From Candidatus Omnitrophota bacterium (GTDB lineage: Bacteria > Omnitrophota > Gorgyraeia > Duberdicusellales > 4484-171): a DNA stretch of 60,962 nucleotides. Positions 1 through 60,962 of this stretch are shown here, one piece after another. A program made the position numbers and the translations under genes. Numbering within the stretch: position 1 is the stretch's first letter; every line of letters begins with the position of its first letter. The stretch is taken from NCBI GenBank assembly GCA_028713415.1, contig JAQTOI010000003.1:1-60962 (forward strand), read 5' to 3'. The notes under the pieces were generated by a model that did not search any database, was not told where the DNA came from, and was given only the letters and a program-made list of their open reading frames with translations.

Positions 1-140
1 ATAAGTATCCAGGCGCAGATGAGAGAATCGAAATAAAAGAAAAATCAAGCTCTCCTGTTTCCTCAAACTATCTGCCTTCGTACAGCCCGCTTATATTTTC
101 TGGAATAAACTTAAACGACATTCTATCTGGCACGGGAGCG

Positions 141-3100: not shown

Positions 3101-6100
3101 GCCTTTTAGCGAAAGCATGGGTATTCCATGGCGGCAATTTTATCTTAATATGCAGGCATTCGAAAGGTTATTTTGTTTAAAAACGGATACACTCTATGAT
3201 CTTATCGGAAAGATCATAGCTGGTTTTAATACAGGCATAGAAGAGACTCATCACGGCCTGGTTCAAGCGGAAATGAGTCAGATCATTGGGATGGTAGAAG
3301 ATTTCTTTAGAATAAAGAAGGCTTTAAAGTCTGCGAGGTTTTTCAATTACGGCCGCGATTCCGGAAGAGGCACAAGCCTTGTGTTTGCGCCCGCGAAAAT
3401 TTCCGCTTCGAAGCTGATTTCTTCCCCGCTTTCAGCTGATACATTGGTAGAATTCACCAGAGAACAAATAGGTATCTATTCCGGGCTTTTCCATTTGCCT
3501 TGGCAGGAATATAACCCGGTTTATCTCCCTGTACAGCCTAGCGCTGAATCTAACGGTAAACAAAGCATTATCAGTCCGCTTGCGATTAAAGAAGGCATGG
3601 CTCTATTGGCTCTTGACCAGAGGCAGCCGGTCATCAATCCTTTAGTTATCGCTGGTGACTACTTTGAAGCAACTCGGCTTGATCCAAGAAAAGTCATAGC
3701 GGCAATATTGCCTCATGAAATCGGGCACAGCATATTATGGACATTAGGCAGGTCAATAGAAGGCTTGGGGACAATTTGGGATATAGTATCTGCCGAGTTA
3801 GATCTGCCCGAATTGTTACCGCCGGAGCAGCAAGCATTCAGCGGTCTGGGATTGAGCGTTATTTTCGGTGCAAGAATCTTGCGCCCAAGTTATGAAATAA
3901 TAAGGATACAAGATGTTAATATTTTGTATTATCACATTCGTGAAACTATTTGTAACGCAATAGGATTGCAGCTAATACCCAGTCACATTTTTAAAGCAAA
4001 GGATGCCCATCCGGATTATTCTAATCACGACACTTTATACGCGTATGCGCTTGAATACTACGGAGAACTTTTAGAAAAGATAATCGCTGTAGCTGATAAT
4101 TTAAGCCTTACTTCGGACGCCGCAGAGGCCGTTCCGACGTTAGCAAATGCCTATAACCCTTTTGAGGATGTTATTCTTGAAGACGGTTCAGCTCTTTGGT
4201 CAAAGTATTACTACCTTAGATTAGCCGTTATGGAAGCTTTCTTTAAAGACGCGCAATCGCTTGAAGGTCTTAATCCCGCACTTCTTAAAGAAATCGGAGA
4301 GTTAATCCGCGGCATAGGGGCCGCTATCGACAGGCTGATAGCAGCGTGGCCTAATGCGCAGGCGCGAAGAGAGAAAAAACTTTATAATGATCTAGTAGCG
4401 GCATTTTCCGAAACTCACGCGAACGCGCGTAAAATTGTTCTCATTCAGCCCCGCGATAAACGTCTTAGTGCTTTTTCGGATAAAAGAGTTTCAAGCCCGC
4501 TCTCAAATGGCGAAGCAATAGCCTTCAATAACCCGACAAATAGTTCAAACCCAACGCGCGGGCCTCCGGCGGATAAGGCTCACGAATTATCCTCTTCAAA
4601 TTCTTCAGAGGAATTAACCTCTAGCCCCGTACAAAACGGCCTGGTTTATAATCCGGGTTTAGCGACGATAGGGGGCCTGGCTAAGGTCACCTGCGGCTTG
4701 GCGATATCTTTAGCTAAGGCCGGCTACAGAGTCATTATTTTTACTCCCGGATATAGCCATCCAAAATATAACTACGGCCAGGTGCCTTCAACGCTTATCA
4801 GCGATACCAGAGATGTTAGTGTAAGCTTAGGAAGCAAACAGGAGAGGCTCACCATAAAAAAATTAGATTTAGGCCTTATTAGCATAGTTACGCTCACCCA
4901 TCCTGTCATTTTTGAACGGCCCTATGTTGACGCATTAAGAACTGAACAAGCAGTGTTATTTTCAAAGGGTTCACTGGATGTTATGACACAGCTAGGCTTG
5001 GTGCCGGAAATAATTCACGCCCACGACTGGATGGCCGGTCTGGTGCCCGCATATTTAACCGATACTCCCAGATACCAAGAATATTTTACAAACGCCGCTT
5101 CGTTATTTACTATTCATAATGCCTTGCACCAAGGATGGGTCGGCATGGATAATGCTACAAGAATCAGTGTTTCGCGGAACATAATAGAATTTAAAGATTC
5201 CGTCAATCTGATGAAAGCAGGCATAGTTACTGCTGACGCTGTAAGCACTGTCAGCCCTCGCTATGCCCAGGAGATACAGACTTCTGATTACGGTTGCGGC
5301 TTAGAAGCATTTTTAAAAACCAGAGGGGTTGTCGGAATTAATAATGGCCTCTGCTTAGATTGTAACCCAAAGACCGCGGATATCGCGGCCAATTTCAGCG
5401 TTGACGACGGAATTGAGGCTGTATTGCCTGCGAAGTTAGAAAACATGCAGGCCATTCAGGAAAGATTTGGGTTAACAAAAGATAGAAATAAGTTTCTCGT
5501 CGTCTTGGCAGCACGCCTGGATAGGCAAAAAGCAATAGAACTTCTGGTTGAAGTTATCCCCGCGGTATTAGGCAAATACACAGACGCGCAATTCGTCATA
5601 GACGGCCCGCAGTTCGCTGATCCGGCCATAGCCCAATTGCATACAATAGCGCAGAGGCAGGATTTTCAGGGAAGATTTGCGTTCCGGCCGGAGCAGGAAT
5701 CCAATAATTACAGCGTCCTTGCGGGAGGAACGCTAAACTTAGCATGGAACGCGTGGGCGCCATTTGATTTAGTCGCGCGTGAAGCTTCGCTTTTGGGAAC
5801 TCCTTCAGCGCTTAGGCTCACAGGAGGTTTAGCTGAGTTTGTTCCCTATGACGAACAAACAGGCGAGGGTGAAGCCTTTGCCTCCGATGAGTATAGCGCA
5901 AAAGCACTTCTTGAGGCAATTGAACTTGCGAGAGATACCTATTACAACCGGCCTTCACACTGGAAACTAATAGTCGAGCGCGGCATGCGTAAAGATTTTA
6001 CCTGGAAAGAATCGACATGCCGATATGTAGAGCTTTTTACGCGGATGCAAAGAACTAAATTCGGCAGAGCTCTACCCATAAACGGCCTGATAACGATAGT

Positions 6101-9100
6101 TACTCCAGAAGCCTATCCTAATGTCCTGCAAATGGCGCTCGTTCGTTCCAGTTCCCCCTCATCAGCGGTTTTTGATTTGGCGACTGTCAGAAAAATTCTA
6201 GTGTATACGCAACCTGTGCTTCGAATCCAGGTGGTTAGCATCGAAGAAAAAGGTAAAACCATCAAAGCCGCAGTGCTTATTTCTAAAGACAACACCAGCG
6301 ACAGGCTCGTTTTTATATCTTCCAAAGACCGAGAGTTGGAAGTTGATAGAGATATGGGTGTTTGGCTGTATCTTACATTGGGTGCGTCTCAGGCAGTTTG
6401 TGTGCAGCCAGGCGCCTCAAACCGCATGGTAAAAAGAAGGCCGATTTTGTTACGAGTGGCCGCGCCTACTCAAATTGAAATAAAAGAAGAAGACGTTCTT
6501 CTGCAAAGTATTCCACAGAGCGGAGGCGTAATTGTTGCGCGGAACAAAACCAATCTTGGCCCAATAAATATAGAAAGGCGGCAATTTAATGTGGGCAATC
6601 GTACCTTTGAGGTTACGGGCATCTCAGAGGAGCCTTACTTGCTTTTTGTTGCTGATGAGGCTGGAAGGCTTCTGATGCTTGCCCCCCATGACATACGGCA
6701 AGCTAAAGAAGGAATATGGTTTGAATTTATCGGCTCAAGCAGCGGCCGGAAGACGGATAATCCCAGAGTGCAGATTTTTGCTCCAGGCCTTGATATCAGG
6801 CGTCCGGATATGAAAAAAGCCGGCCTAGGAGAGTCAAGTTCTGCTGTGATTGCTACGTATAGCGTTGATTTATTTCGGTTGCGGCAGCTTAACGGCCAAA
6901 GTACCTCTTCCGTGGCTGGTGGAAACTTTGGTTCTGCCGCAGCCGTTTCTTTTAATAAAAATCGTTTGGTTTCCCTCAACGCTTTAAGCTCGCCTGTTTC
7001 GCCGGATGCGAGTCAAGGCGGGCCTAGCGCAGCTACTATCCAAGCTACAAGCCGCAAGCTACAAGCCGCAGGCAGGGCAAATGGTATAAATAATATTAGC
7101 CCCGCACTTTCTACAAGAATAAATATCGAAGTAGCAGAAAGTGCGGGACAATTCGCAGACGGCTTACGCCTACGATTTACGTTCGCACGCCTGCGCAGCA
7201 GGCAGGCTGCCGTAAATCGTCTGCTCATTGGAGGTGTATCATGGTCCGTGGTTTTGAAAACCTTGAGATTATCAATTTCACTCATACCAACAGAGGCATT
7301 TTTATTTGGGCAACATATCCGGGATGGGCTTCAAAATACATTTTCTTTCTCCAGGGTAACGGGAACCTTAGAGGCAAAAACAGCGGCGGCGCATGGGGAG
7401 AGGTTTCAAGCACTGCCAGTAAAATTATCAGAGAGAAACTTTGCTCAACTATTTCAGACAGATTCCGGATATCATAATACAGATTTAGGCTTGGCTTCTT
7501 CTCCGGATGTTGCAAACGAAGAAAAAATCGAAAGCATCCTCGCGGAATATCTTCTTACCCCGGGTTTTTGGCCCGATCAGCAGAGAGTATTGGATCGATT
7601 AGAAAAAGAGGGGATTAATCCAGACTATTATGTACCCTTTTTGTCTAACATGGTGGAAAGCAGGAAAGAGGAAGCTGCCCAAGTTAAAGACGATATACCG
7701 CGTGAAAAATTTAGCGGAGAAACTGACAAGTTAGATAATTTAAATAGGCTTGCGGTATTTTACTACATACTTACCCTATTTGAAAATTCCGTCATTTCCG
7801 GGATATTATGGCGTTGGGCAACTTTTGCTTATATGGGCCCTGAAGAAATCTCCAGCCATAATATATTCTTGAGAACTTTGATGCAGGGATTAGAGACCGC
7901 CATAAAAACAGATCATTATCACGGAGATACTCAATATGCCGAAGGTTTCGCCTGGTATATTTATCATTTCTTAAGAGATTTCCCAAGCTGCTACATTGCT
8001 GAGTTTTTTGACTATTTAGTTGACCGTCACCCCGCTCATCACAATAGCCAGGCTCCGGCTGTCGCAGGCCAGGTTATTATGACTGATGAAGAACGCCGGA
8101 GCCTTAAGCAGGCTTTTAGAACTTCACGCGAAGCGGAAAGGGAATTTGAGGATGATAAATCTACAATTGATGCGGTTATTGAAATATGTTTAGGCGACCA
8201 TGTTGATGAGTCGCTTGACGTGCAGGAAGCAGCCAGAAAATTACGCGCGAGCGGTATTCCCCTTCAGGCAATAATCAGATGTTTACAGATGAGGCTTGGC
8301 ACAGGCCAAAAAATACCGCAATCAATGAACAGGCTTATGGCTTTGCTTCATCACGGGCCCGGCCAGGGCGCAAAAGCTCCTTCTGTCGTAAATGCAAATG
8401 ATTGCGGATTGGGAAGAACGCATCCTACTACGCCAAGGCTTCGTAGGACAAGGATGATCGCAGATGGCAAGACCGCGGCTGAACGCGGGGTAAAAACAGG
8501 CTCATCGCCTTTGGATGGAAAAGGTTCTTTGGGTGGGTTACGCGAGGTGATACATATAGTCAGGGCCTTAAACGTCTCGCTTAAAACTTCAAGAGACTGG
8601 AGGGCTCAACGAAAACAGATTCAAAAGCTGGGTAAATTAGCCGTCCCCTTTGCCGTCACAGCCTTAGTCCCCATACTTGAAAATCAGGATTTAGAGATAT
8701 TGCATCGCGATGTGGTAGAGGCAATAGGCAGGTTTGACGGAAATAATTTGAATAGAACCCGTTATGCTCAAGCCGCCCTCGCATTACATACGCTTATCTG
8801 GCGCAGGACTTATTTCGGCCTTCTTGAAATGGATGCGCTTGCCAAAGACGCTTTTGAAATTTTATGTAAACAGATAGCGCTTGCTATACCCGATATCCTG
8901 GACATAAGCCTTTATGTTCTGGAAAAGATTAATATTGTTTTTTACATGGCGAATGAAGCTGAATGCCGCTACTGCATGCAATATATGCTTGATGCGGCAA
9001 AGCTCGCGCTCGAAAGAAAAAAGTTTCGTGAGGTGCCGCTGCTTGTGACGGAAGTGAGACAAAAAGTCTGCGAACTTAAGGGTTATTTAGCGCGTACCGA

Positions 9101-12100
9101 GATAGTGCGGGATGGCCATTATATAGAACACTTAGATGAGTTGATTGTTAAAGCGGATGATATACTCGCGCGATTAAATGATTTTTCTCATTCATCCGCG
9201 CAAGCCGGTTCACCTGCCATAAGCGTTTTAAATCCATTCCGGTCAGTATTATTTTTTACTCCAAGTGTAAGCGCTTCCATTGCTGGGAATACGGATACAC
9301 ACGGATTGAGAGGAACGCATCCTACTACGCCAAGGCTTCGCAGGACAAGGATGATCGCAGATGGAGGAAACACGGATGTAGAGGGATTAAAAAGAGGGTC
9401 GTCGCCGCTAGATTCACATTCTCGCGCGCTTGCTGTAAGGAATAGCCACCTTACTGATTTAGCAGGTAATTTTATGTTACACGCTTCCTCATCTGTGCCT
9501 GCTGATAATAATTGGGAAAAAATAGTTGATATTACTTTCCAGAAAAAAATTGCTGCTAATTATATTTGGCCGCGGCCTGATTCGGTTCCAATAGAGGAAG
9601 TATCGAATGCTATTAGCGGAAGCATTGGAACGGAGATGGAAGGCGAATTCCCGAGTGCTTTAGTATATCCCGCGGTCGATATCTTACTCGGCGACTTAAT
9701 TCCTAACTCTGTTGATGCTGCTTTTGAGGCGGTTGATGAAGGCCAACTCGCAAAGGATAAAGCAATGGTAAGGTTTATTCTTCTGGGCAATAAAGATAGA
9801 CACGTATTTAGAGCAGAATTATCGGATAACGGTATAGGTGTGCCGGCTTATATTTTTCAAAAATGGCCGCATTTAGAAGGACTACATTTAAGTGCAGCTT
9901 TAGGAGGAATAGTTTTAAGACAATTAACTACTAAACGCGGTAATAATCTTGGCCGATATGCGGGAAGACGTGGCCAGGGGGTAGTTAAAGTTTTAGCCAC
10001 GGCAAAAGATTACGGCCTTGCGATATCTATTGGATCTAAACGCCGGGGTGAAACGGCGTATATTTTCAGGCAATTGTCGGATGGAACAAGAAGCCTCATT
10101 CATTCTGATTTTAAACACGCGGGGACGAGGATTGTTATAGATAACATTATTCCCGAACGGGAAGTTCGTTTGGGTGCTAGCGAAATAATCGAGGCAATTC
10201 GGGCTACGGATCGTGATTATGGAAGCAGCCCGATAGTCGGAAGCACACAAATATTGATAAAAAATTTAGAGTATGGCATTGCTTTGACACCAAATTTAAA
10301 TCCCTGGAATATTGCCAACCAGGTTTATCATTTAAATATAGATGGTAGAAGCGTGGAAATCTCCAATTTCAAATATGTAAAGATAAAAATCGCGGATAAG
10401 GTTATTTATCTCGGCACACACCACAACGGCGCTTACTTCTTTACCTTGTTGTCTTTTAAGGAGGGTTTATTAAGCGGCAAAGAAACTTTTGCCCACATAG
10501 ACCAGCTTCATCATCCGGATAACGGGAAATTACAGGTTGTTCTGCCGTCACCGGATGAGGATACGAGTGCGCATCTTAGATGCCTAAGCACCCAATATCA
10601 TGCGGCTCAAGCGACTAACCGGCAAGCGGTTACCAGGACAAATTATGTAACCGCGTTAAAAAGTTTATTTCCCCAAATGCGATTTGTATTCTTGAGGGAT
10701 ACGGATAGGCCTTCTTTTGACTGGGGCGACATGAGCTTCGACTGGAGCGGTTCCGTATTTGACTTTAGACAATCGATAGAAGGAGGAATAGCGAGCGTGG
10801 ATTTAGATATAGTAGCTAAAAACCTTGACCGCGCAGATGCGCTTAGCGCATTACTAAACTGCATCGTAAAGATAGCAAGCCAGTGCAAACTTGTAATGAT
10901 TTTTACTTCCCCTGATTATTTAGCTCCTGCAGTCGCTACAGAAGCCGCAGAAATATTTGCCAGCGATCTTTTGCATGCGATTGAGGGTAATGCGAAAGGA
11001 TCTTTTGTGATTAACGCAAGAGAAGGAAGTTCGCCGGCAGCTATGCTAAACCGGCATTTTCTGGAACAGATGTCCGCTCCTCTAGCTGTATACGTTGAAA
11101 CTGAAAATAGGATAGCTACTGGTTATCCTTCTATCTGGGAGCATCTTATGCGCCAAAGTGACCAGCATTTGGCCGGCAGGATATTAGTATTGTTCCAATG
11201 GCGCAAGCAGCAAGGTTTTAAAGTCTTACCGCGCCTTGATTTATTAGTGCGGCAACTTTTGCCTCAAGATTTAAGTAACCTTTCAGAAAGTGACCAGATA
11301 AGTTGGGTTTTGAAATACAAGATACAGGAATTTATGGAATTATTCGGAATATTTACTTCTGATGTGGAAAGAGGCAGCACCGCGCAAATAGAAAATACCG
11401 GGCTTCGCGGTATGTCGGAAAATGCTGCCCAACAGATATATAGTGAATACAAGCAGGATGTTAGCGAGTTTATTTTAAATGTTTTGAAAATAGCAAGAGA
11501 CGTGGTTTTATTCCTGCGAAAAGCCCCCTTTATTGTTGAAATAGGCTGCTCAACCGGACGCAGCGCACACCTATATATACCCGATGCAAAAGGGATATAT
11601 CCCGGCCTTCGTTATGTCGGGACCGACATATTCAGGCCTAAGAATCTTGTTCTCGGAAAAGAAGAGTTTATTTTACATGATATACTGAAAAGCCCTCTTC
11701 CTTTTGGAGAAAAGCCGGATATTATCGTATTTACTAACGTGGACATGCATCTTTCACCTAGACACCATTATTCCCAAGATGGTTTTGACAGCGGGAGATT
11801 ACGCGCCTGGCGTAATATTCTGCAAAGCACCAAAGAAGGAACGCTTATCCTGGCAGGCAGTGCCAATTTTGCAGAACATAGGTATATAACAAGAAAGAAT
11901 AGAATCGTTAGAATTCAAACTCCAAGGGAAGCTATTGCGGTTATAGCAGAAATTAAAGGCACCTCTTCTTCTCCCGCGAAAGATATAGGATGGTCTTCTT
12001 ATGTTGATGCGCGTGAGTATTTTAATTTCGGTAGTGGAGAAGAAGGCTCTTCGCCTTCCGCGGCATCTTCACGTGCACTGGCGGCGTTTAACGTACAAGG

Positions 12101-15100
12101 CTCTTTTGATAAAGTTACCACAGTCAATACTAAATTGTTGCTGCCGCCAGATGTTCTATTCCAAAATATTTCTTCTCCGCTGATGATTAGGAATCCATAC
12201 GAACATCTTACGCAAAAAACACGCGGACCGCCAGCACTAAGCACTATACGCTATGCACAAATTATCAGATTTCCTCACAGGGTTGTTTCTTCACCAATCC
12301 AGCCATTATTATTTTTTACCCCAAGTGTAAGCGCTTCCATTTTGAAAAACGCGTCTGATTACGGATGGCGTGTTTCTTCTCCGGGAAATAAAGAATCATT
12401 GGCGAAACCTATGAATTTATCGGAAAGATGGATATTTGAGCTGGCACGTGATAGTGAGGGGGCCTCGCTTAGCCCAAGTCAAAGCGGGCCTGCCGCAGCC
12501 CTTCGATTCGTTTCAACTCACTCAAAACGCTCCGCAGCCCCCTTACTGGGACGCTCCGCAGCCGGTTTATCTATCGCCGGGCCTAGCTTGCCTCCGGAAG
12601 CAGAAGGTAGAAATCAACTTGGTGCATATGCGAAAAAAGCTATTGCGTTGAAAACACTTTACGATGATGCGCATAACAGTAGAATAACATATTTTTTAGA
12701 GACAACGAAAATGAGGCAAGCGGCGAAAATGGTTTTTAGTCATACTCCTTGCCTTGATTGTGTAAAAGGCGCAAAGGTTTTAGATTTAGCGATAGGTAAC
12801 GGTCTTGTGTCGGGGTTTGCTTTAGAGTATGGGGCAAATGAAGTTGTTGGGGTAGATATATCGCAAGGTATGCTTGTTTGGGCAGAGGAACGGTTGGGAT
12901 CTTATCGGAATAGCGGGCGTACTATACGCATGGTTCATTCAGATATTTTAGGCTTAAGCGATCGCCTTAGAGATGAACAAGGCCGGGTAGAGACATTTGA
13001 TATTGTAATTTTCGGTAATGTGCTTTGCTATTATGATTGGCATGTTCGTATGCACATAATCCAGGAATCCGTTAGTTTTCTTAAAAAAGGCGGGCGTCTG
13101 GTTACTTTATTCCGTAGTATTGATGAAGGCGGTACAACGATGGCAACGCGGCAGTATGAAGATTTGTTTAAAACTTCCGGATTACATCAGGTAGATAGTT
13201 ATATATGTAATAGGGAGACAGATGAGGATCTGGGATTAGAAGAAGGCGAACTTGAACTAGTAATAAATGAGAACGTTGTTGTTTGGGGGGACAAAAGCGT
13301 GTCTAGCCCAACCATGTCTTTCAATGCACAAAACATCTCTTTTGCAGGCTCATCACCGCTTAAACTTTTTAACGCGGAGCGCACAAATATAGCAGGAGTA
13401 CACGTGGTACCTCTGGGCGGTATTAATGGCCCGGGAGCAAGTTGTTTCTATGTAAAAGTCGGCACTACGAGATTCTTGCTTGACGCCGGCCAGGGTGTAG
13501 GAAATCAGAACTTTAGCCCACGGTTTGAGTTAATAGATGAAGGCGTTGATTTCGTGCTCATAAGCCACGCGCACCTTGACCATATAGGGTGTTTACCGGA
13601 AGTGATTTGGCTTTTTGGCAATGTGCCTATTTTCAGTAATTCCGACACCACGCAAAAAATCAAATTGATGTTAAAAGACCACATGGCAATAGTCAGCCGC
13701 ATGAAATTGGGGAGTTACCGGAAAAATGAGAGCAAGATTAGAAGGCTGATTAGAGATACGTTAAATAACAGGAGGACCGTAGAGAGGAATAAATATTATC
13801 AGTTCGCGCAAGATTTGAAAGTAATTTTTCAGCCTGCAGGGCATCTGACTGAAGCCGACACAATCATCATGGTCACACCCTACTGTAATGTCATGTATAC
13901 AGGCGATCTTTCCTGGGAGATAACCCGGACCGCGAGGCGTATACATATACCTGATGTCTCCATTGATACGCTTTTTAGCGAAGCAACCTATGGGAGCAGG
14001 TCCCATCCTGCTACACGCCAGGAGCGAGAAGAGGAGCTGGCGGTAAGAGTCAATGAAGTTATGGCAAGAGGAGGGATACTGCTAATTCCTTCAATCGCCA
14101 CACGCGTTTCAGAGCTCAGCTTTATCTTCGGTCATCATTTCAAGGCAGGTAATTTCAACTCTGAATTTACCGTTTATCTTGACGGCCCTCTTGCCAATAA
14201 AATGCTGGCTGTTGATAGAAGTAATATTAGGTGGATGCCGCAGGATACGATAGACCGGCTTGGATCATTCATCAGAAATAGTAAAATTCAAAAATTGGTG
14301 GCGCAAGATAGAGAGAATATATTAAGAAATGCTAGATGCGTGATCATCGCTACTTCCGGCATGCTTGTCCCGGGAACGCGCTCATACAGGCTCATGAAGC
14401 AAATCGCTTCTGACCCAAGAAACGCCATAGGCCTGAGTAATTATCAGGCTCGCGGAACAGTCGGAAGGCAGGTTAGAACATTTGTGGGCGGCGCGCGCAG
14501 AGGCGATTCTGTCGTTACCGATGAAGACAAGATTGTGATGAATGCCGATGTTTATGAATTCTCTTTTTCAGGGCATGCGGACGCCGGGGAATTACGAACC
14601 ATGATAAGCACTATCAACCCGGTAAGCACGTACTTGGTTCACGCAGAACAAGAGGAAAAGGATGGGCTTCTCTGGAGTTTATCAACAGGCTTGCAGTATC
14701 AAGGTAATATCGAAACACCCGAAATCGGTGAAGAAATAGAGGTGCAGTCATTATGGAAAGAAGCGCGCAGGGAAGCCTTTGACGCTACGCCTGCCGAGCT
14801 TGCTCCTGCTAAGAATTTAGAAATTAAACAGGAAGCCAGAGCCGTCCGCTCACAAGAAAGATTAGAGAGGATAACGCAGGAACAGATAGAGAGAAGCAGA
14901 CAGTTTCAAATCAGGGACGTTACGGAAATTATAACCGGCCTTTTTGGCTTAAGCGCGCAAGATAGCGGCATAGTCAGGCAGGCAGTAGAGCGGCTTGCGC
15001 AAGATGCAGGCGCGCAAAATAGAAACGCAGCCAATTTGCGGAGTGATTTCCAGACATTAGCCAGACAATATCGCAAAGAACAAGTTAGCGCCCAAGAGAT

Positions 15101-51100: not shown

Positions 51101-54100
51101 TGATAGAGGCGCAAATCCATTGCACAGTTTCTATAAAAAGATGATTGCTATGCGTAACCAATCGCTTGCCTTGCAACGCGGGACATATGAAGTAGTGCGC
51201 ATTGATGATGAGCGGCAGCTCTTGGCATATCGCCGTAGTTACGAAGACGAAAATGTTTTTGTAGTGATAAATAATAGCGATAGCGAACGGATTGTTTCAT
51301 TACCGCTCAATTCAATATCTGGTATCCAACCTATTGTTAATCTCGTTGATGATAGGCGATACCAGGTGCAGGATGAAAGAGTAACTCTTACTTTAGCTGA
51401 CCGCAGCGGAGCTATTTTATCTGCCCTAGGCTGTCCAGCTAAAAGCTCATCCCCCTCGGCGCGAGATTTATCAATGGCAGTACATTTTTACGGCCGCGGC
51501 ACGCCTGAACGCATTCTATCAGCTAAAACATTGTCCAGCCCTCAGGTAGCCCCCCGCGCCCCGCCGCAGGAAAACGCCGTACCTAATCGTTCTTTTTTCA
51601 ATTCCTTAACTTGTGCATCTTCCAGTTCCTTGGAAGGGGCGCTTCGCAATCAAACTAACCGGCCGCAATGGCGCAATCAAGTTAAAAGAATCATACAGAT
51701 TACTGGCTGGACCGGTACGCTTATAAATTTGGCGATTACCCTTCTTTTCCTACCACAGATTTTACCTCTCTACATACCCTTAGCATTGGAAGGTTACGCG
51801 TTAGCTCTATATTTCTTCTGGCTGAGCCGGTATAAAGATTCCCGTTTATTCCAGATGGCGATGGCTGTTATCGGCCTTGCGTTTTTCTTTGGAGTTTTTC
51901 ATGTGGCATTACCGTGGGTTATTCCTGCCGTCAGAAACAGCGCAGAACGCACATTTTCTGAAGTCGCATTGATTATCGCGGCAAGATTTGCTCTTATGCT
52001 CCCTGCCATTTTTGCTTCCAAATATTTATGTACAAAATATTTTAAGTTTTTAACACCCAACCCGAAAGCTAATTTTGAATTCAAGTGGAAAGAGGAGCTA
52101 TGGAAATCATTTAAATGGGCGTTTGTCGGCGGAATAATCGCGGGTTATTACATTTCCTATGTAGTATACAATTTTCTTTCGGTAAATATCGATATCGGAT
52201 ATACAAGTTATATCCCGTTTTTGGAGGGAAATCTTTCCATATTGGCATTGAAGGCCGCCTTTGACTTGGGTCTGGCTACTATTTTCGTGCATCATGTCCT
52301 TACGTTAGTGGTGGGCCCGGCTTTTTGCGAAGAGATGAATCTTTTAAAGGAATGGGGTAAGGGCAGTGGCAGCTTAAAGAAGTACATTAAAAAACAATAC
52401 ACTATAGCGTCCCCTTTGAGTTTCTTATTCTGGTATCCGGCTGTTTTTCTTCTTTGGTATCTTTTCCCGCATTTATCACTGGGCATGATACTTACGCAGG
52501 CGGCATTTACCGTTGTTTGGACCGTAATTTATGAACGGATTGTGCAATTCTGGAAGAATGGAGATAATTTTGTAGATGTCGAATACAAAGAAAAAGCTTT
52601 AGGCAAGCAAAGAGCTGCTTCTTCACCTTCGGAAGATTTGTCCGGCGACAAGCTTGGGGCAAGTCTGGAAGCTGCCGCTTTATCATCGAAATTTAGCGGC
52701 ATAAATTTTTCAGAAAAAAAGTTCAGACTTATTGATAAAGTAATGTTAGAGATTGACGCAGAGATCCGGCAGGAGCATCCTGAAAAACTCCTGGCAGCAA
52801 ATCTCGATGTTCAATATCAAAGAACACCGTCGCTATACGCTGTTGCAGTAATTGAGGAATTAGTTAAAAGAAAATTGATGGCTTCGCACAATAAGTTCGG
52901 CGATGTGGGCGCAGGCACGGGCGCAATGCTTATCTTGGTCGTTGCTTTGACCCAGGCCGGGGAGGCAATAGGCATAGAACCTGATGGCTACCTGCGCCAA
53001 AAAGGCCGGGAGGCAATATTACGCCTTCAGAAAATGGGCGTTATCGATGAATCCCGCATAAGGTGGATTCCAAAGGGCTGGGAGGATTCGACCGATATAT
53101 TAGGCCAGCTCGATGCCGCATATTTATATTCTCCGGTTCAAGCCCCGGATCACTGGGCGATTGACGCCAAAGTGATACGTAGTTATATGAGAACAAATGC
53201 ATATCTGCGTGTTGCCGGTGTCGGACAAAGCGGTCCGGGCGCACTTAATAATTTTTCTTGCCTCGCACAAACTTCAGCTATCGGTTCGGAGGCCCTCACC
53301 AAAGCCCACCGCGTAGGCGAGTTTTGGTTAGGCCGCCAAGCGCCGGGCGCCAGCTCGCCAAATCATAATGTGCCTCTTTCAGACGGCATGGAAGTTTTTA
53401 GAAAAAGGGTGCAGCAGGCAACAAGAAGAAACGCGGAAGGGGAGTGTGGGCAACAAGAGAAGATAGATTCTTTGATTATGCAATTGCTTACTGGCAGCGA
53501 GAAACAACACTATGATGCGCTTGGGGAGTTAGTTGCAATCAGCGGATCTTCGCGTAAGCCTTTTTTCGGGCTGGGTGATACAAGCCTTAGCTTTAAAGTT
53601 CGCAAATCCCTGGGTGAAGCGTTAGGCAGCTTGGTAGGTAAAAGAATGATTCAGGTCTGCAGAAGAATTTTTAATGACGAGCGCATAGCTGGTGAAATCC
53701 GCCAAACTGCAGCAAGGTATCTGTTTAGCCTTGGTAAACGCGTTAAACCAAGAATGATGCGCACCAGCTTCCCGGTAGCAGCCAGGTCCAGCCGTTATAA
53801 TATAGTATGCGTATGTAAAGGTAATCTTTACCGGGGTCCCTTTTTGGAATTTATGATACGCGATTACCTAAAAAGAAGGAAGTGGGGAAATTATTTTTTA
53901 GTTCGTTCTGCCGGAACTTCGGCGTGGATAAATAGTGTAGATCGTGAATATGAACTAAAAAAGCAAGGGGAAATACAGCTTAGCCTCTATCGGCAGGTAA
54001 GCGTGACGGAATCGATGCAACAATTTTATAGTGGTATTTCTCCTCGCAGGTATTTGTCTGAGCGTATGTATAAAACTGCAGATGTAATATTAACAGTTAG

Positions 54101-57100
54101 CCCGGATATTAGCGCCGTCAAAAAATCTATTTTAGTTACCGAATTCCTGCCAGAATACCACCGGTATTTTCGTCAGCCTATTCCCGATTCCGTATGCCCC
54201 GATTTCAATCTGCTTATTGATTTATACTCCAGCTTATTAAGGTCCGGTTTAGGCAAGGCTATTCAGCAAGCGGTTGGAGAGATAAAGCAAGCAAAAAAAC
54301 AATACAAAGGAAATGAAAACAACAGGGATCAGGCCTCAAAATTAGAAATTGACCGCGCCAGCTCGCCGGAACAAAGAAAGCCCCTGGTTATCTGCGGTGT
54401 GCGCGTTAGCCCAGATATTGATGAAGAAGGAATCAAAAAATGGATAAACAGGATTTTAGGTAAGTTTCCAGTGCAACAGCATGATGTTTTTATCGGTTTT
54501 CCATCGCATCCTTACATAAGCGATATAACTATTGAAGGATTGCCTATTGGTTGCGTGGTTGGCTATAACGGCCTAACCGGTAATAGACAAGAGCGCGAGT
54601 CAGATTATGTTATCTATGATCATAAAGGCACTAGAAGTGTATTCTTCATGCAATATGGCTCTGCAGTCGATTTAGATAAGAGAGCGGTATCAGTTGGTTC
54701 GTGGCGGCTTATTGTTCCTTTGTGTGCGGAGGCGATTGCTGTTTGCATGATGGATACAAAAAGTTTATTGTGCGACGCTGCGTTCATTCCGATATACACT
54801 TTAGATAGGCATGGTGACATGTATACACAGAGATTTTATAGCGCTATAAGGAAACCGGTTATGGGTATGGATCAAGGGTTGCAGAGAACTTGGCGTGTTA
54901 TTACGCCAAAAGGGATATATGATTATCAAGGCCTTTACAATTGCGCAGTTGCTTTAACTATAAATTCAGACGGTCGCAATACGCTTGGAATTTTCCGTGA
55001 AGCGCAAGCCCGCGCGAGAAATCCAGAAGATAAAACTTCAAGCCCATCAAGCTCTACTATGGCTGACCCTTGGCACCCAAATGACCGGGGTTATGAAGTA
55101 ATGGCAGAGGCTTGGTTTAGAGCTTTAACTGACCCTGAGGCCGCAGTAATCGCTAAGTTATTAACGGGGACGTCGGCACGCTCCGCGAAAGCTGCGCAGA
55201 CCTCCAGCCCCGTGCCGGAAAATACAGGAGGGACACTTCCCGACGGGATTTTATCACCCACACCTTTAAAGCAATTTGTTTTTAATCCTGCAGAGCATCA
55301 AAACGATAAGCGTCTTGCGGGGGCTGTGATAGAGTGGTTCGGCGTTGCGGGAGATTTTAATTTATGGAAGCCGCGCGAATGCGATATCAGCAGAGTTTCC
55401 CAACAAGGTAAATACGAGATAACAATCGCTTTATCGCAAACAAGCCGTTATAAGTTTGTTATTAAGTTTTTGGGTAAAGCGCACCTTGAGTGGTTTACTG
55501 ATATTCATTCTCCCTTTAGAGATAAACGCGGCAACAGTTTTGTTATAGCTCAACCGTCGGAAGTTTGCCCCCATTCATATTATAGCGGAGGAATCGCAGT
55601 GCATAGAAGTAATGTGCCTGGGCTTAGCGCGGGGCAGGTGGTAATGAGTGTCCGCTTAGCTTCAGATATTATAAAAGATAGTCAGCAACTTTTAGTAGTA
55701 AGGAGAAGGCTTTGTGAATGGTATGATTACCAAGGGCAGCCACCGGTGAGGCACAAACACGATTTATTGCACTCAATATTACTGAGTAAGCTTGATTGCG
55801 GGCACGAAGTTATGCAATATTACTTTAAGAATTTCCCATGCGCTCTATATTTTGCAATTAGCGATGCAGCCGACAATGGCCGAGACAATATTGATGTAGA
55901 AGGAATAGCGGTAGTAACGTATAGGCCAGAAGGCATATCGGTAGATTATTTAGAGATTAAGCCGCAAAATAGGCTCGGCCCAGAACGATCACGCTTTGTC
56001 GGTGTAGGCCACCAGCTCATTTTTCATATTTTCCATAGTTTACTCAAAGAATCTCACGGTTTTCGTGCTAACCTCAATACTGATACTTTACTCAGCGATG
56101 GAATTGTAGCCGGCCAGTGGTACAGCACCGCTGAAATGGAGGAACGCGTGGTAGCGCGCGTAAGAAGGACATTGAAAATTTTTAATGAAAACGTTTATTC
56201 GCGCGATTCATTAGGAAATCAAGCAAGAGATGTATTGGCAGGGTGCCTAGATGACGCGATGCGATTGCGCACAGCGAGTTCGTCCCTCCTCAACAAGATA
56301 AGAGTTTCTCCACAAGGACATGCGATACTCTCATCGGCCTCTTTAACGTTTAACACGCACGAAAGAAGCGCATTAAGCTATAGGCTTTTTAGAGATCCTC
56401 ACAGTAGTAGCAGCCCAAGCCAATTGCCGAATATACAGAAGGTTGGCTCAAGTCCTCAAACCCCTGATGCTTCAAGTCCTCTTGACGGCAATCAAGCTCG
56501 TCAGCCCAACGCCGGGCAGTTGCCGCACGTAGAATTACAGTTAACCAACTATCAAGGAAGATACAAAGTGGTTCAACCACAACCCCAAGCTTTAGCCGCC
56601 AATGGCCAGCTCAGGGGCCACCTGGACGGTTTATTAGGCCTGCTCACCACGTATATGCCAAACGGCCCTCCTTTTACACTTATAATGACTGAAAATGCCG
56701 CAGGCATTGATCATACCCGTACTTCTCATATCCTCGATACTACCATAGTCGTTACTGCACCGGCAAGCAGAAGATTGACCGTACATTATTCATTTTTTGA
56801 TTTTCCTATTACAATCCAGGCTGATATTCTACGTATCCGTTTAAGTTACTTAAATGGTTTAACAGAGCCATATATTTATCAAACCGGACTTTCTCATTTC
56901 GCAACATACCGCAGAAATAATCCCCAGTCTCCGGATGAATTAACCAAATTTTTAGAAGAGGCAGCAAGATACGGTTATATATTGCCGGATATGTACCGAA
57001 TTACTTTAGAACAATTACAAAGGCTTCATTTTGGCGACTTAGACTTCCAGCTTTTTGTTGCCGAAGGAAATCATTTTCAGGCATACGAGAAACTTGGCAG

Positions 57101-60100
57101 CCATCTTATAACTACAGGTGGACAGCATCTCGGTACATATGTAGCAGTGTGGGCGCCTAATGCTAAAAGCGTCTCGGTTATCGGAGATTTTAATCAATGG
57201 GGTGTTACCTACAGCCATGTACTCTCGAATTATTCAGGTATCTGGCACGGTTTTGTTCCCGCACTGACTAAGGACAAGCGTTATAAGTACCGCATAACAG
57301 GCGCTGACAACGTAGTGCGTGACAAAGTAGACCCCTATGCTTTTTTTAATGAACATCCAAGCCGTGGCTATGAGCAAAGCACTGCATCACTTGTTTGGAA
57401 TTTAGATTACCAATGGCAGGATGCTGCTTGGATGAACGCCAGGCGTGCAACACAGTCGTATGGCAAACCTATTGCTATTTATGAAGTTCATCTTGGTTCA
57501 TGGATTCGCAGGCCGGATAACAGCCAACTCAGTTATCGGGAGATTGCTGAGCCGTTAGCTGAATATGTGAAGGGTATTGGTTTTACTCATGTTGAGTTCT
57601 TACCCATAACAGAACATACCTTTGAAGGTTCCTGGGGTTATCAGGTGAGTAATTACTTTGCGCCAACTTCGCGTTTCGGCACCCCCCAGGACCTGATGTA
57701 TCTTGTGGATTATTTACACCAGCAAGGTATTGGGGTTATTCTTGACTTTGTCCCTGCGCATTTCCCTAAGGATACGCAAGGATTAAGCCGCTTTGACGGA
57801 ACAGAGCTTTACGGCCATGCTGACCCGGCTAAGGGAGAGCACCCGCATTGGGGCACCTACATATTTAATTATGGCCGCAATGAAGTGCAAAGTTTCCTTA
57901 TCAGCTGCGCTTTGTTTTGGCTGAAAAAATATCATTTTGACGGCTTGCGTTTTGATGCTGTTGCTTCCATGCTTTATCTTGATTATGGTAGGGATGGAGG
58001 GCCTTGGGTTCCAAATAAGTATGGTGGAAACCAAAACCTTGAGGCAATAGAATTTCTATGGAAGATAAATTCAAGAGTTTTCAGCGAAGTGCCCGGAGTT
58101 TTAACTATTGCTGAGGAATCAACTGCCTGGCCCGGGGTAACTGCGCCGGTGGCCATAAGCGGATTGGGATTTTCCCTAAAATGGAACATGGGTTGGATGC
58201 ATGATACGTTACAGTTCTTAAGGACGGATCCATTTTTCAGGCACTATGACCTGGGCCGTTTTACCGGTATCTTAAATTACAGCTTTGACGAAAGATTTCT
58301 CCTTGCGCTTTCTCACGATGAAGTAGTGCATATGAAAGGTTCATTGCCCAACAAAATGCCTCAGGAGGATTGGAGGAGATTTGCCAATGTGCGGCTGCTC
58401 TTTGCCATCCAGTATGGTTTTCCCGGAAAAAAACATATGTTTATGGGTATGGAGTTTGGCCAATGGCGCGAATGGAACCATAACCAAAGCCTTGACTGGT
58501 TTCTTTTGGATGATTGGGATTCCTGGCATGCAGGTATGCTTAGATTAGTCAGTGATCTTAACGGTTTTTATCGAAGAGAACCTTCATTATATGAACGGGA
58601 TTTTGACCGCAGGGGCGTTGAAGTAATTAACTTTGATTCTGATAATACTGTTTTGTGTATTGGCCGCAGGGGTAAAAATCCAAACGAGATGCTTATTTGG
58701 GTTTACAACTTTACTCCGATGGTGAGATACGATTACTGCGTAGGTGTACCTTGGCCTGGCATATGGCAGGAGGTATTTAATAGCGATGCTCAAATTTACG
58801 GTGGTTCAGGAATCGGCAATCTGGGCGGTGTAGATGCCCGGGAGGTTCCTTTCCACGGACGTCCTTATTCAATAAATCTTACGCTCCCGCCATTAGGGGC
58901 GCTCGTGTTCAAAGTAGTACGCGCCTCCAGTTCTCTGTTTTCGACAAGGCCGTTTCCGGGCTCCAGCCCCCCAATGGCAAATGGCAAAGGGCGAATGGCT
59001 GATAGCAATTCAAAGACGCCGCCGCAACGCGGCTCCGGCCCCGCGCAAAAACCATCAAGGCCTCTGATTATAGAAACCGTAGTGGTTGATCAACATGAAC
59101 TTGAGATACATAAACGGGAAGAGCGTTTAGATATTGTGGGAAGAGCCGTTAATGTTCTGCATACTAAATCGCCTTACTGCGGTTATTTTGGTTTTATGGA
59201 TGACAGAGGAAGGGCAATCGTCCTGCACTATTTTATTATTTCTTTTATTGAAGACGTTATTGTAAGGGCGCTGGAAAACAAAGTTCCTCTTATTTGGGAG
59301 AAATGGGAAGGCAAACCCGTACAAAGATTGGTATTAAGAAGAAAAGTCGGAAAATTTATCCGAAAGACACTATCCAAGTTTACTTTGGATGATATTCATC
59401 AATTTCTTGTAAATAGTACCATTGACCATGAAGTAAGGCACATTGAAATAGAACGAGGCCATTTTATCCCCAATAAAGGATTTGTTAGCCATGTAATTGC
59501 CGATAATGGAGAGGAATCCAGAGCCTTTATCGCCAAAGTCGCCGGAGAAATAGATTGTATGTTAACGGGTTATGCCGATAAATACCCTCCGCAACTTGAA
59601 TTCCTGGTCGACATTGATATGTTAGCATCCCCCTCGAATGCGGTAGGGTATTTAGCTTCAGCTATGCTGATGAAAGAGCTGGTTGGCGTAGATTTTGTAA
59701 GTTATGAGCAGTGGGATGAGATTAAAGCTTTCGCGGCCATCGAACAATTACGCTCTTGTTTGGATAGGTTATTATTGGGCGGATTTGATGTAACCATGTT
59801 CAGGTGGAAAGCCGCCATGGTAAAAGAAAAAATTGGCGCAGTATCTAATAGAAATGGGCGTTCCTCAAGTCCTTCAACCCAACGAAAAGCTGACGCTGTA
59901 AAGAGTAAACAGATCATAAATCTAATGAGATTTAACAATCGGTTGCGGCAGGATAACGCCAGTTCACCCCTAAGCATTCAAAGTAGCTATTATCCTGCAA
60001 CTCTGTTTGGAAAAAACGTACCTGCTGACCAAAGGCAAAGAGAAAATTTTATGTTCTATCTGCGCCAGGCCGGAAAAGAATTAAATACGGATTTTGATTT

Positions 60101-60899: not shown

Positions 60900-60962
60900 A
60901 TGAAAATGAAGAGGTATATGTGGGCCCAGCAGCAGTTGAAGATGAGATCGCTACCAGCAGTC
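60900..60962 (+). CDS. Possible 5' end of a downstream ORF (truncated by the window edge)
   Basis: ATG at 60900, 6 nt after the giant ORF's TAA, and open for all 21 codons to the window end ('MKMKRYMWAQQQLKMRSLPAV'). No clear Shine-Dalgarno sequence. Too short to evaluate. Confidence 0.2.
   Translation, partial: MKMKRYMWAQQQLKMRSLPAV

Follow-up and report, generated by a model that had tools for sequence, protein, structure and literature searches.

A giant Omnitrophota gene with recurring Ser-Ser-Pro junctions and a predicted set of alpha-glucan remodelling enzymes

Introduction

Giant open reading frames (ORFs) of bacteria were discovered recently and are still poorly understood. The stretch of DNA considered here, 60,962 nucleotides from a Candidatus Omnitrophota bacterium (positions 1 to 60,962 of the forward strand of contig JAQTOI010000003.1, assembly GCA_028713415.1; the whole stretch is called the window below), carries one of them. 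The locus raises the question of what a single reading frame does with modules that resemble many of the enzymes of glycogen metabolism, which in ordinary bacteria are separate genes, and of how so long a chain is put together. An initial annotation had seen in it a near-complete toolkit for alpha-glucan synthesis and degradation, in an arrangement not described before. The answer that we consider probable on balance is that the ORF encodes a chain jointed by the tripeptide Ser-Ser-Pro (SSP), tethered to the membrane and facing the cytoplasm, which provides in fixed stoichiometry a set of enzymes for maltodextrin/glycogen remodelling.

ORFs longer than 20 kb have been reported across the classes of Omnitrophota by Seymour et al. 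In the 'Archaeovorins' of West-Roberts et al. 2023, GT5 is the second commonest domain and stands with GT1, methyltransferases, glycosyl hydrolases and glycolytic enzymes; proteolytic processing was proposed for these proteins and the cleavage points were stated to be unknown (bioRxiv 10.1101/2023.11.21.568195). Among the domains of Omnitrophota giants are the GT5 'starch synthase', PF08323, counted in 153 of them, and also GT1, phosphoglucomutase, ROK/hexokinase, HAD and methyltransferase domains (bioRxiv 10.1101/2023.11.21.568195; 10.64898/2026.06.07.730766). A 2026 preprint, which covers 5,761 proteins of 10,000 aa or more, defines a class 1 of 'multi-enzyme metabolic clusters' with a sugar-metabolism module of PF08323, GT1, phosphoglucomutase and ROK, and mentions no linker, motif or cleavage (bioRxiv 10.64898/2026.06.07.730766). 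Whether giant proteins work as one chain or are cut, and where, is the open question of this literature.

Results

One reading frame stays open through the window and is punctuated along its length by a single tripeptide:

3..60893, forward strand: giant ORF of at least 20,296 sense codons, with its 5′ edge open and its TAA stop at 60891-60893
48..59969, forward strand: 62 in-frame SSP triplets, running from one at 48-56 to one at 59961-59969

The list of ORFs gives the frame as 141..60893 on the forward strand (20,250 amino acids, aa); the 46 codons upstream of base 141 are likewise open, back to base 3, and the 5′ end of the giant gene lies outside the window. Each of the other five frames of the same DNA has 795-1,665 stops, which rules out a chance ORF, a wrong frame or an assembly product. 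GC content is even along the window (about 0.40-0.49, overall 0.445), with a fall to about 0.40 (0.35 at third codon positions, GC3) in 32001-38000, a part rich in duplicated modules and junction repeats. The ORF exceeds the 10,000 aa and 20 kb by which giant multi-enzyme ORFs of the Omnitrophota type are recognized, and when the protein was tiled in 1,000-aa pieces for a Pfam search, about 15 domain types were found to tile the chain, none of them dominant, including PF08323, Methyltransf_25 and HAD. We are inclined to see in the window the final 61 kb, at the 3′ side, of a giant gene that is intact and belongs to the 'multi-enzyme metabolic' class known from Omnitrophota.

The count of SSP is 62, where composition alone predicts 4.8 and a first-order model 17 (z 10.9). 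It is the top tripeptide, and no other tripeptide of reasonable count rises above z 5. Its density per 1,000 aa is 3.0 in the ORF, 0.04 in ordinary GlgA and GlgB, and 0.39 in the long ORFs of 80 unrelated bacterial loci. The spacing of the triplets along the chain is bimodal and gives some 45 modules, each 147-1,196 aa long, together with some 18 spacers of 5-77 aa. Every one of the six Ser codons and of the four Pro codons is used in the triplets, which indicates selection on the peptide and rules out a repeat maintained at the level of DNA. Sites were absent from the envelopes of hidden Markov model (HMM) matches (0 of 61, where 12.8 would be expected from the 4,236 residues covered; P 6e-7), and most of the full-length matches (GT5, HAD, GH13 and the C-terminal end of GlgB) stop 1-35 aa from an SSP. 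Each recognized enzyme stands alone in an SSP-bounded segment of approximately the size of its free-standing homologue: 507 aa for GT5, 602 for a beta-CASP nuclease, 219 for HAD, 903 for the GT35-like module, 539 for the first GH77, 581 for GH13 and 827 for GlgB. A recurring junction motif between complete units, as would be expected of a processed polyprotein, is present. The residue before the triplet (position -1) is small (A/S/G/V) at 48 of the 62 sites, the flanks are otherwise poorly conserved, and at a few junctions SSA or SSS stands in place of SSP. There was no enrichment of Shine-Dalgarno sequences or Met at the junctions, and a role of SSP in marking internal translation starts was rejected for that reason. 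On these patterns the SSP sites are candidates for hinges or for sites of processing.

Some junctions share longer peptides, SSP-x3-4-GSLKTA-x3-PP at the triplet itself and [RK]-x-[GA]-P-P-[AL] in the spacers, which may be an extended recognition motif or the trace of segmental duplication. Six or seven copies of the former lie in 24781-36772 (e.g. 29113-29167, 31711-31765 and 32776-32830), with about 65-86% DNA identity, and extended motifs occur likewise around aa 1451-1494, 4011-4050 and 5263-5343. There are also two pairs of near-identical DNA repeats that encode junction spacers, 48318-48420/58941-59043 and 48183-48271/51480-51568 (91% and 82%); the spacers read …SSPPMANGKGRMADSNSK… and …FYG.GTPERILSAKTL.SP… and follow the kinase-like, GlgB and GH13 modules. 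These repeats are recent duplications of junction segments.

Eight of the approximately 45 modules are of glycogen or starch enzyme type:

4629..6149, forward strand: GT5 (GlgA-like) module, 507 aa, full length, with Ala1873 for the catalytic Glu and Thr for the Lys of KxGGL
16176..18884, forward strand: GT35-like (alpha-glucan family phosphorylase-like) module, 903 aa, very divergent
39393..41555, forward strand: CBM48 plus divergent GH13 module, 721 aa, with regions I (DVVLNH), II (GFRADVA) and IV (SNHD)
42711..44327, forward strand: first GH77 module (GH77a), 539 aa, divergent, with motifs RADAIH, GELLG and LHDG
44337..47111, forward strand: second GH77 module (GH77b), 925 aa, with GH77 (RIDH, GENIG, SGD), a weak GlgE_C-like beta domain and a GDSL esterase-like domain
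49704..51446, forward strand: GH13 neopullulanase/cyclomaltodextrinase-like module, 581 aa, with regions I-IV intact (DGVFNH, GWRIDTA, GEV, GCHD), followed by Malt_amylase_C
55212..56408, forward strand: module with a CBM48-like N-terminal part at about 55344-55466
56481..58961, forward strand: GlgB module, 827 aa, with a branching-enzyme core at 57039-58925 (CBM48, GH13, Alpha-amylase_C)

These modules were searched against NCBIfam, against Pfam at a relaxed threshold and against PDB sequences. GlgB was the most canonical, matching NF008967 over its full length at 852 bits (cut-off 577) and TIGR01515 at 790 (cut-off 464), with the catalytic motifs RFDAV, AEEST and SHDE intact. The neopullulanase-like module matched Alpha-amylase (E 1.4e-38, 133.8 bits) and cyclomaltodextrinase NF041090 (E 1e-69) below the equivalog cut-offs (235 vs 540), so that its subfamily is not fixed. 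Both GH77 modules exceeded the gathering score of PF02446 (25 bits), GH77b at 145-183 bits (E 3e-42) and GH77a at 58.8 bits (E 6e-16). Aligned with RLDH/AEDLG/THDN of a GH77 fusion protein, P0089, both keep the Asp nucleophile and the Glu acid/base, the placement of the third Asp being less certain. GH77b had initially been ended at 46379; the SSP-bounded module extends to 47111. In the CBM48 plus GH13 module CBM_48 was matched at E 9e-8 and Alpha-amylase at 22.0 bits, exactly the gathering score, and among PDB sequences the alpha-amylase 4gkl was matched (E 3e-22). Scores for CBM48 (PF02922) were 32.8 bits in this module, number 43 in the chain, and 70.1 bits in GlgB, both above the gathering score of 22.4. 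The isolated CBM48-like stretch fell below it (18.6 bits, E 0.0024) and aligns with the other two copies at V.GDF..W / Y / D..P; its AlphaFold2 model (pLDDT 41.5, from a 3-sequence alignment) was unusable.

The GT5 module matched PF08323 above the gathering score (E 5e-51) and TIGR02095 glgA over positions 14-476 of 477 (E 7e-77), the latter at 259 bits, under the 328-bit cut-off, and its best PDB match was E. coli glycogen synthase (E 5e-35). Motifs HxHDW and TGGL and the R/K of RLxxQKG are present. In the S-x-x-E-P-x-G motif the Glu is found in 128 of 128 ordinary-sized GlgA homologues, and we take it to be E377 of the E. coli enzyme, a key catalytic residue; the window reads NAWAPFD, and the alignment places Ala at this position. 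The lysine of KxGGL, which is K in 104 of the 128 homologues, is Thr. No nucleotidyl-transferase (GlgC-like) domain was found in the window with Pfam and NCBIfam, in agreement with the initial annotation, which had recognized none; the scans included the dark modules, those with no recognized domain, in which there was nothing more that was sugar-related. No recognizable ADP-glucose route is thus encoded in the window, because the GT5 module lacks the Glu and there is no GlgC. To call the set a synthesis toolkit, as had been done, claims too much when these two replacements are found in its only synthase-like module.

The GT35-like module is very divergent. There was no match to PF00343 (Pfam Phosphorylase), even at the relaxed threshold, and the match to TIGR02094 (alpha-glucan family phosphorylase, E 7e-14) reached 51.5 bits against a cut-off of 191.7. 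The only PDB matches were two 'alpha-glucan family phosphorylases' (E 0.02 and 0.07), each in two colinear stretches, and BLASTP against the true GT35 domain of a GlgA-GlgP fusion, P0110, gave two colinear high-scoring segments in the same stretches (E 3e-5 and 3e-4). Two motifs align with the PDB phosphorylases, RRIADYK (for RRxxxYK) and EAAGMADMK, which contains the pyridoxal phosphate lysine, with the Ser and Thr of the motif replaced. The former presumably corresponds to the R/K phosphate motif R569/K574 in rabbit numbering, and the latter to the Schiff-base Lys in E-A-S-G-T-S-x-x-K. A search for homologous proteins gave no match for this module, nor for a 5,000-aa chunk, and the AlphaFold2 single-sequence model (pLDDT 33.5) was unusable for the fold. 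GT35-like seems a fair label for a module whose membership of the family lies below the HMM cut-off.

That one polypeptide carries homologues of GT5, GT35, GH13 (twice), GH77 (twice), CBM48 and GlgB was borne out, every module that had been proposed receiving some support from the HMM searches. The strength of this support varied, from a canonical GlgB, through clear GH13 and GH77b modules and a full-length GT5, to the divergent GH77a and CBM48 plus GH13 modules; the GT35-like module and the isolated CBM48 remained under threshold and are backed by motifs. GC3 of the glucan modules is 0.37-0.47 and that of the whole ORF 0.41. Because every glucan module is close to the ORF in this respect there is no sign of recent import, and the fusions are therefore old. 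A recent horizontal acquisition of GlgB, whose GC3 equals that of the ORF, was ruled out.

Relatives were sought with an exhaustive HMMER search of 1.84 billion representatives, using as query the GT5 module and its two flanking modules, and the matches covered the GT5 part alone, never the flanking modules. The best match, P0001, comes from a metagenome contig of ENA (L081), is a fragment of 4,634 aa and has 54% identity to the GT5 of the window over its C-terminal half; it reads NAWAPYD. Since this nearest relative carries the same Ala, the GT5 module without the catalytic Glu is, as judged from the alignment, a conserved variant and not a product of decay. The next long matches, P0002/P0151, P0030 and P0057, are entries named 'glycogen/starch synthase, partial [Candidatus Omnitrophota bacterium]', and the remainder were ordinary GlgA of about 480 aa or short fusions; every named long relative of the GT5 module is an Omnitrophota protein. 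A metagenome scan with an alignment of the GT5 variant found no relative, and an exact 43-mer from the window had no match among the genome, viral and metagenome contigs searched. For GlgB the best matches among 5.8 billion proteins were of ordinary length, at most 60% identical and from mixed phyla, with no close relative; in GTDB, among the matches listed, homologues were free-standing only, 50-58% identical and again from mixed phyla, with no taxonomic signal.

The punctuation recurs in some of these relatives. In P0001, SSP is the top tripeptide (10 against 1.0 expected, at a spacing of 250-780 aa), and it is again the top tripeptide (5 against 0.4) in the ORF that follows on L081 in the same frame, past a TAG. 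P0030, from Omnitrophota genome CP070797.1 (L082), has [A/S/N]-S-P punctuation (SP 26 vs 7.6), and in a large ORF neighbouring it SSP is the top tripeptide. There was no enrichment of SSP or SP punctuation in P0002, P0057 and P0089, so the punctuation is lineage-restricted. The junction after GT5 has the same position in P0001 (…VASSAV…) as in the window (…VRSSSPSSAV…), and the modules downstream differ, which suggests, at the level of sequence comparison, that modules have been exchanged at junctions between giant genes.

Several further features of the relatives were noted. The TAG on L081 (13927-13929) is a single in-frame stop between open stretches of 4,641 and 1,175 codons, both SSP-punctuated; it may mark the true limit between two genes, or be a stop that is recoded or simply an error. 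P0030 contains the peptide GLCIVASP(F/L)A(E/G)AGLV three times, at residues 7-24, 346-363 and 3178-3190 (N-terminus, internal and C-terminus). P0002/P0151 combine GT5 with what appear from sequence alone to be tandem UDP-glucose-pyrophosphorylase-like and nucleotidyl-transferase-like regions. P0110 (1,215 aa) joins GT5 to GT35, P0089 (2,093 aa) is GT5-GT5-P-loop-GH77, and P0137 and P0053 are also fusions of alpha-glucan enzymes, a GH13-like domain with GT5 being among the fusion types.

Other modules of the chain are unrelated to glucans:

13359-15164, forward strand: MBL/beta-CASP/RMMBL module, 602 aa, RNA nuclease-like
15270-15926, forward strand: HAD module, 219 aa, with DLGG in place of DxDG
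47121..48338, forward strand: Ser/Thr-kinase-like module, with the G-loop and VAIK Lys present and VKELKPSH in place of HRDLKPxN
51543..52619, forward strand: membrane-type module with five clustered hydrophobic transmembrane (TM)-like segments, aa 17194-17452, and no Pfam match
53361..54359, forward strand: low-molecular-weight phosphatase-like module with the CX5R loop present

A Kyte-Doolittle hydropathy scan, a crude method and the only one applied to this, gave about eight strong TM-like segments in the chain, including the cluster of five; a sixth, weaker segment (aa 17586-17604) lies in the module after the membrane-type one. The kinase-like, methyltransferase, HAD, low-molecular-weight phosphatase and beta-CASP nuclease modules share inter-TM stretches with glucan modules. 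With Pfam and NCBIfam there was no protease domain in the window, and with Pfam there were no HEAT repeats, dockerin/TSP3, C39/S8 peptidase, SecA-like or adhesin domains and no signal peptide in the window, the N-terminal part of the gene lying beyond it. For the beta-CASP module the closest families are the archaeal ribonuclease aCPSF1 (TIGR03675, E 6e-60) and 'type VII CRISPR-associated Cas14' (NF045584, E 2e-45). A domain of about 250-350 aa without any Pfam or NCBIfam match is present in three copies (10200-11027, 31722-32780 and 34884-35642; 35-49% identical), with invariant GTHHHGAY, FAHID..HHPDN, ASVDLDI and MIF.SP, and we take its His/Asp pattern to recall metal sites of the arginase/deacetylase fold. 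A new ORF on the same strand has its ATG 7 nt past the TAA of the giant gene and is cut by the end of the window (60900-60962).

Discussion

Patterns detected in the window are consistent with a giant gene that would be built like an operon in which stop codons have been replaced by a junction peptide, the SSP joining some 45 gene-sized modules. Those with catalytic residues kept, two 4-alpha-glucanotransferases of GH77, a neopullulanase-like hydrolase of GH13, the canonical GlgB and, possibly, the GT35-like phosphorylase, would together make up a set for the remodelling and turnover of maltodextrins and glycogen, if activity may be predicted from such residues. In free-living bacteria the combination of GH77, GH13, GlgB and phosphorylase handles maltodextrins and remodels or turns over glycogen (PMC11046441). 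Any net building of polymer would presumably be of the MalQ/GlgB type, from maltodextrins, nucleotide-sugar-driven synthesis not being encoded in this stretch. The set would be made in 1:1 proportion on the cytoplasm-facing side of the membrane, to which the chain would be tethered; this face is proposed because modules dependent on ATP, S-adenosylmethionine (SAM) and phosphate share the inter-TM stretches with the glucan modules. A cytoplasm-facing, membrane-anchored topology has likewise been argued for giants (bioRxiv 10.64898/2026.06.07.730766). The SSP junctions would serve as recognized hinges or as processing sites. It is a matter of speculation that the kinase-like and phosphatase-like modules could regulate adjacent glucan modules in cis; GlgE is known to be regulated by Ser/Thr phosphorylation (PMC11046441).

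The arrangement is a member of a described class of giant multi-enzyme genes, and the view that nothing like it was known does not hold, given the giant Omnitrophota ORFs with GT5 and the smaller glucan fusions already on record. Like those giants, the present ORF runs to tens of kilobases and has many enzyme domains with none dominating, among them GT5, methyltransferase and HAD, together with TM-like segments and a largely unannotated remainder. It differs in that the sugar modules described so far are GT5, GT1, phosphoglucomutase, ROK/hexokinase and glycolytic enzymes, whereas the window adds GH77, GH13, GlgB and the GT35-like module; and the dockerin, HEAT, C39/S8 peptidase and SecA domains of Archaeovorin/dockerin-type giants are not in the window. 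In the papers examined on giant proteins we met neither a combination of GH77, GH13, GlgB and GT35-like modules within one gene of this kind nor SSP punctuation, a junction motif or a cleavage point.

Comparison may also be made with smaller systems. The classical glgBXCAP operon with malQ, malP and malZ draws on the same families, GT5, GT35, GH13 and GH77, and co-expresses synthetic and degradative members (PMC11046441). By contrast the window has a single polypeptide with interleaved unrelated modules, in which GlgC and GlgX are not recognizable and GT5 lacks the catalytic Glu, and its modules are mostly far more divergent, except for GlgB, which is 50-60% identical to the ordinary GlgB of many phyla. 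It had been supposed that synthetic and degradative enzymes on one chain would require special control against futile cycling. Free-standing glg genes are normally co-expressed too, and there substrate specificity and allostery restrain cycling (PMC11046441), so covalent linkage adds little to the problem. MalQ-GlgB (in Neisseria) and TreS-Mak fusions are documented (PMC11046441). These (the latter as TreS-Mak/Pep2), with GlgX/MalQ (NF011083), TreY-MalQ (PRK14507), P0110 and P0089, link both directions of glucan metabolism covalently, as here, but in two to four domains and 1-2 thousand residues and with no conserved junction tripeptide. As an analogy only, and from general knowledge, viral and eukaryotic polyproteins also have gene-sized units in one ORF and a short recurring separator peptide; the host here is bacterial, S-S-P is unlike known viral sites, and the present case is known from sequence alone.

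Several observations count against a membrane-tethered remodelling chain. About 79% of the giant ORF has no recognizable domain, four of the eight glucan modules are under the curated family cut-offs, and the region III acid/base Glu of the CBM48 plus GH13 module was not found or could not be aligned. Catalytic motifs of the GT5, kinase-like and HAD modules are non-canonical. The crudeness of the hydropathy scan leaves the number of membrane crossings, and so the side on which each module lies, unsettled. The literature favors an extracellular, prey-degrading role for such proteins (bioRxiv 10.1101/2023.11.21.568195). Part of the chain may be a pseudo-enzyme scaffold, because of the glucan modules under cut-off and the non-canonical catalytic motifs.

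An alternative explanation is a true polyprotein, in which a dedicated protease encoded upstream or elsewhere, for example a post-proline or small-P1 endopeptidase, cuts at or near each SSP and frees about 45 ordinary-sized enzymes, among them free GlgB, MalQ-like, amylase-like and phosphorylase-like proteins. The giant ORF would then be a stop-less operon of more than 60 kb whose products include the full remodelling set and whose junctions are also points of module shuffling. We consider this a tentative alternative, rather unlikely as matters stand and yet deserving attention. Processing had been one of the possibilities raised initially, and it gains an unexpected clue, in that the module limits chosen at that time all adjoin SSP. 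Selection acts on this strict tripeptide at the amino-acid level and domains are free of it; segment lengths fall into two groups, the modules being of gene-like size, and a small residue usually precedes the site. A polytopic membrane module lies amid soluble enzymes, functionally unrelated modules (RNase-like, methyltransferases, glucan enzymes) are strung together, and the junction after GT5 keeps its position in P0001 in front of a different module. Cleavage, without cleavage points, was proposed by West-Roberts et al. (bioRxiv 10.1101/2023.11.21.568195). However, a protease domain was not found in the window, conservation around SSP is otherwise poor, many proteases are resisted by Pro-containing sites, and the same S-S-P signal would also arise from a hinge, from a helix N-cap or from a site of phosphorylation or glycosylation. 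It is also conceivable, though we doubt it, that the chain or large loops of it lie outside the cell as a tool of predation or of the surface, with glucan modules that either bind and break down the polysaccharide or glycogen of prey or make a coat of alpha-glucan. This would follow the 'Archaeovorins' proposal made for Velamenicoccus and the reading of Omnitrophota giants in the literature; there are several TM-like segments, some stretches could be external, and three CBM48 glucan-binding domains and a GDSL esterase-like domain would suit such a role. It would not account for the kinase-like, SAM-methyltransferase, HAD, low-molecular-weight phosphatase and beta-CASP modules beside the glucan modules, whose cofactors are cytoplasmic, nor for a phosphorylase, which requires phosphate, and dockerin, adhesin, HEAT, signal peptide and SecA domains were absent from the window by Pfam. 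To our knowledge archaeal and bacterial walls are not alpha-1,4-glucans, which also counts against it.

It is improbable, in our estimation, that the chain is mostly a pseudo-enzyme scaffold, its enzyme-derived folds now binding or structural, for example in holding a glycogen granule at the membrane, with few modules active. The replacements in GT5 (Glu to Ala, Lys of KxGGL to Thr), in the kinase (HRD to VKE) and in HAD (DxD to DLG) would fit this, as would a CBM48 plus GH13 module without recognizable acid/base, GT35-like and GH77a modules far under family cut-offs, and the large part of the chain that is unrecognizable. GlgB nevertheless passes equivalog cut-offs with all catalytic residues, and GH13, GH77a and GH77b keep nucleophile and acid/base; retention of the GT5 variant (APFD/APYD) at 54% identity points to a selected function, and an unbroken 60-kb frame implies strong purifying selection. 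Nor is an artefact, whether from mis-assembly, from use of the wrong genetic code or from reading separate genes as a single one, an explanation to which we give any but the slightest credence. The in-frame TAG between two such ORFs on L081 might be cited for it, but the stop-free run of codons set against the stops of the other frames, the colinear and complete domains, the junctions without Shine-Dalgarno or Met enrichment, the varied codons at those junctions and the homogeneous composition all speak against it.

Several things follow from the window for the study of giant genes. As to whether giant proteins are one chain or are cut, SSP gives predicted termini for proteomics, and its statistically strong grammar, in which junctions fall at the ends of complete enzymes, offers a rational way of splitting giant proteins for structure prediction. 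A conserved GT5 variant without its catalytic Glu is flagged. Finally, giant genes can, on the reading that we favor, hold a coherent pathway-level set, here for alpha-glucan remodelling, and would not be random collections of domains.

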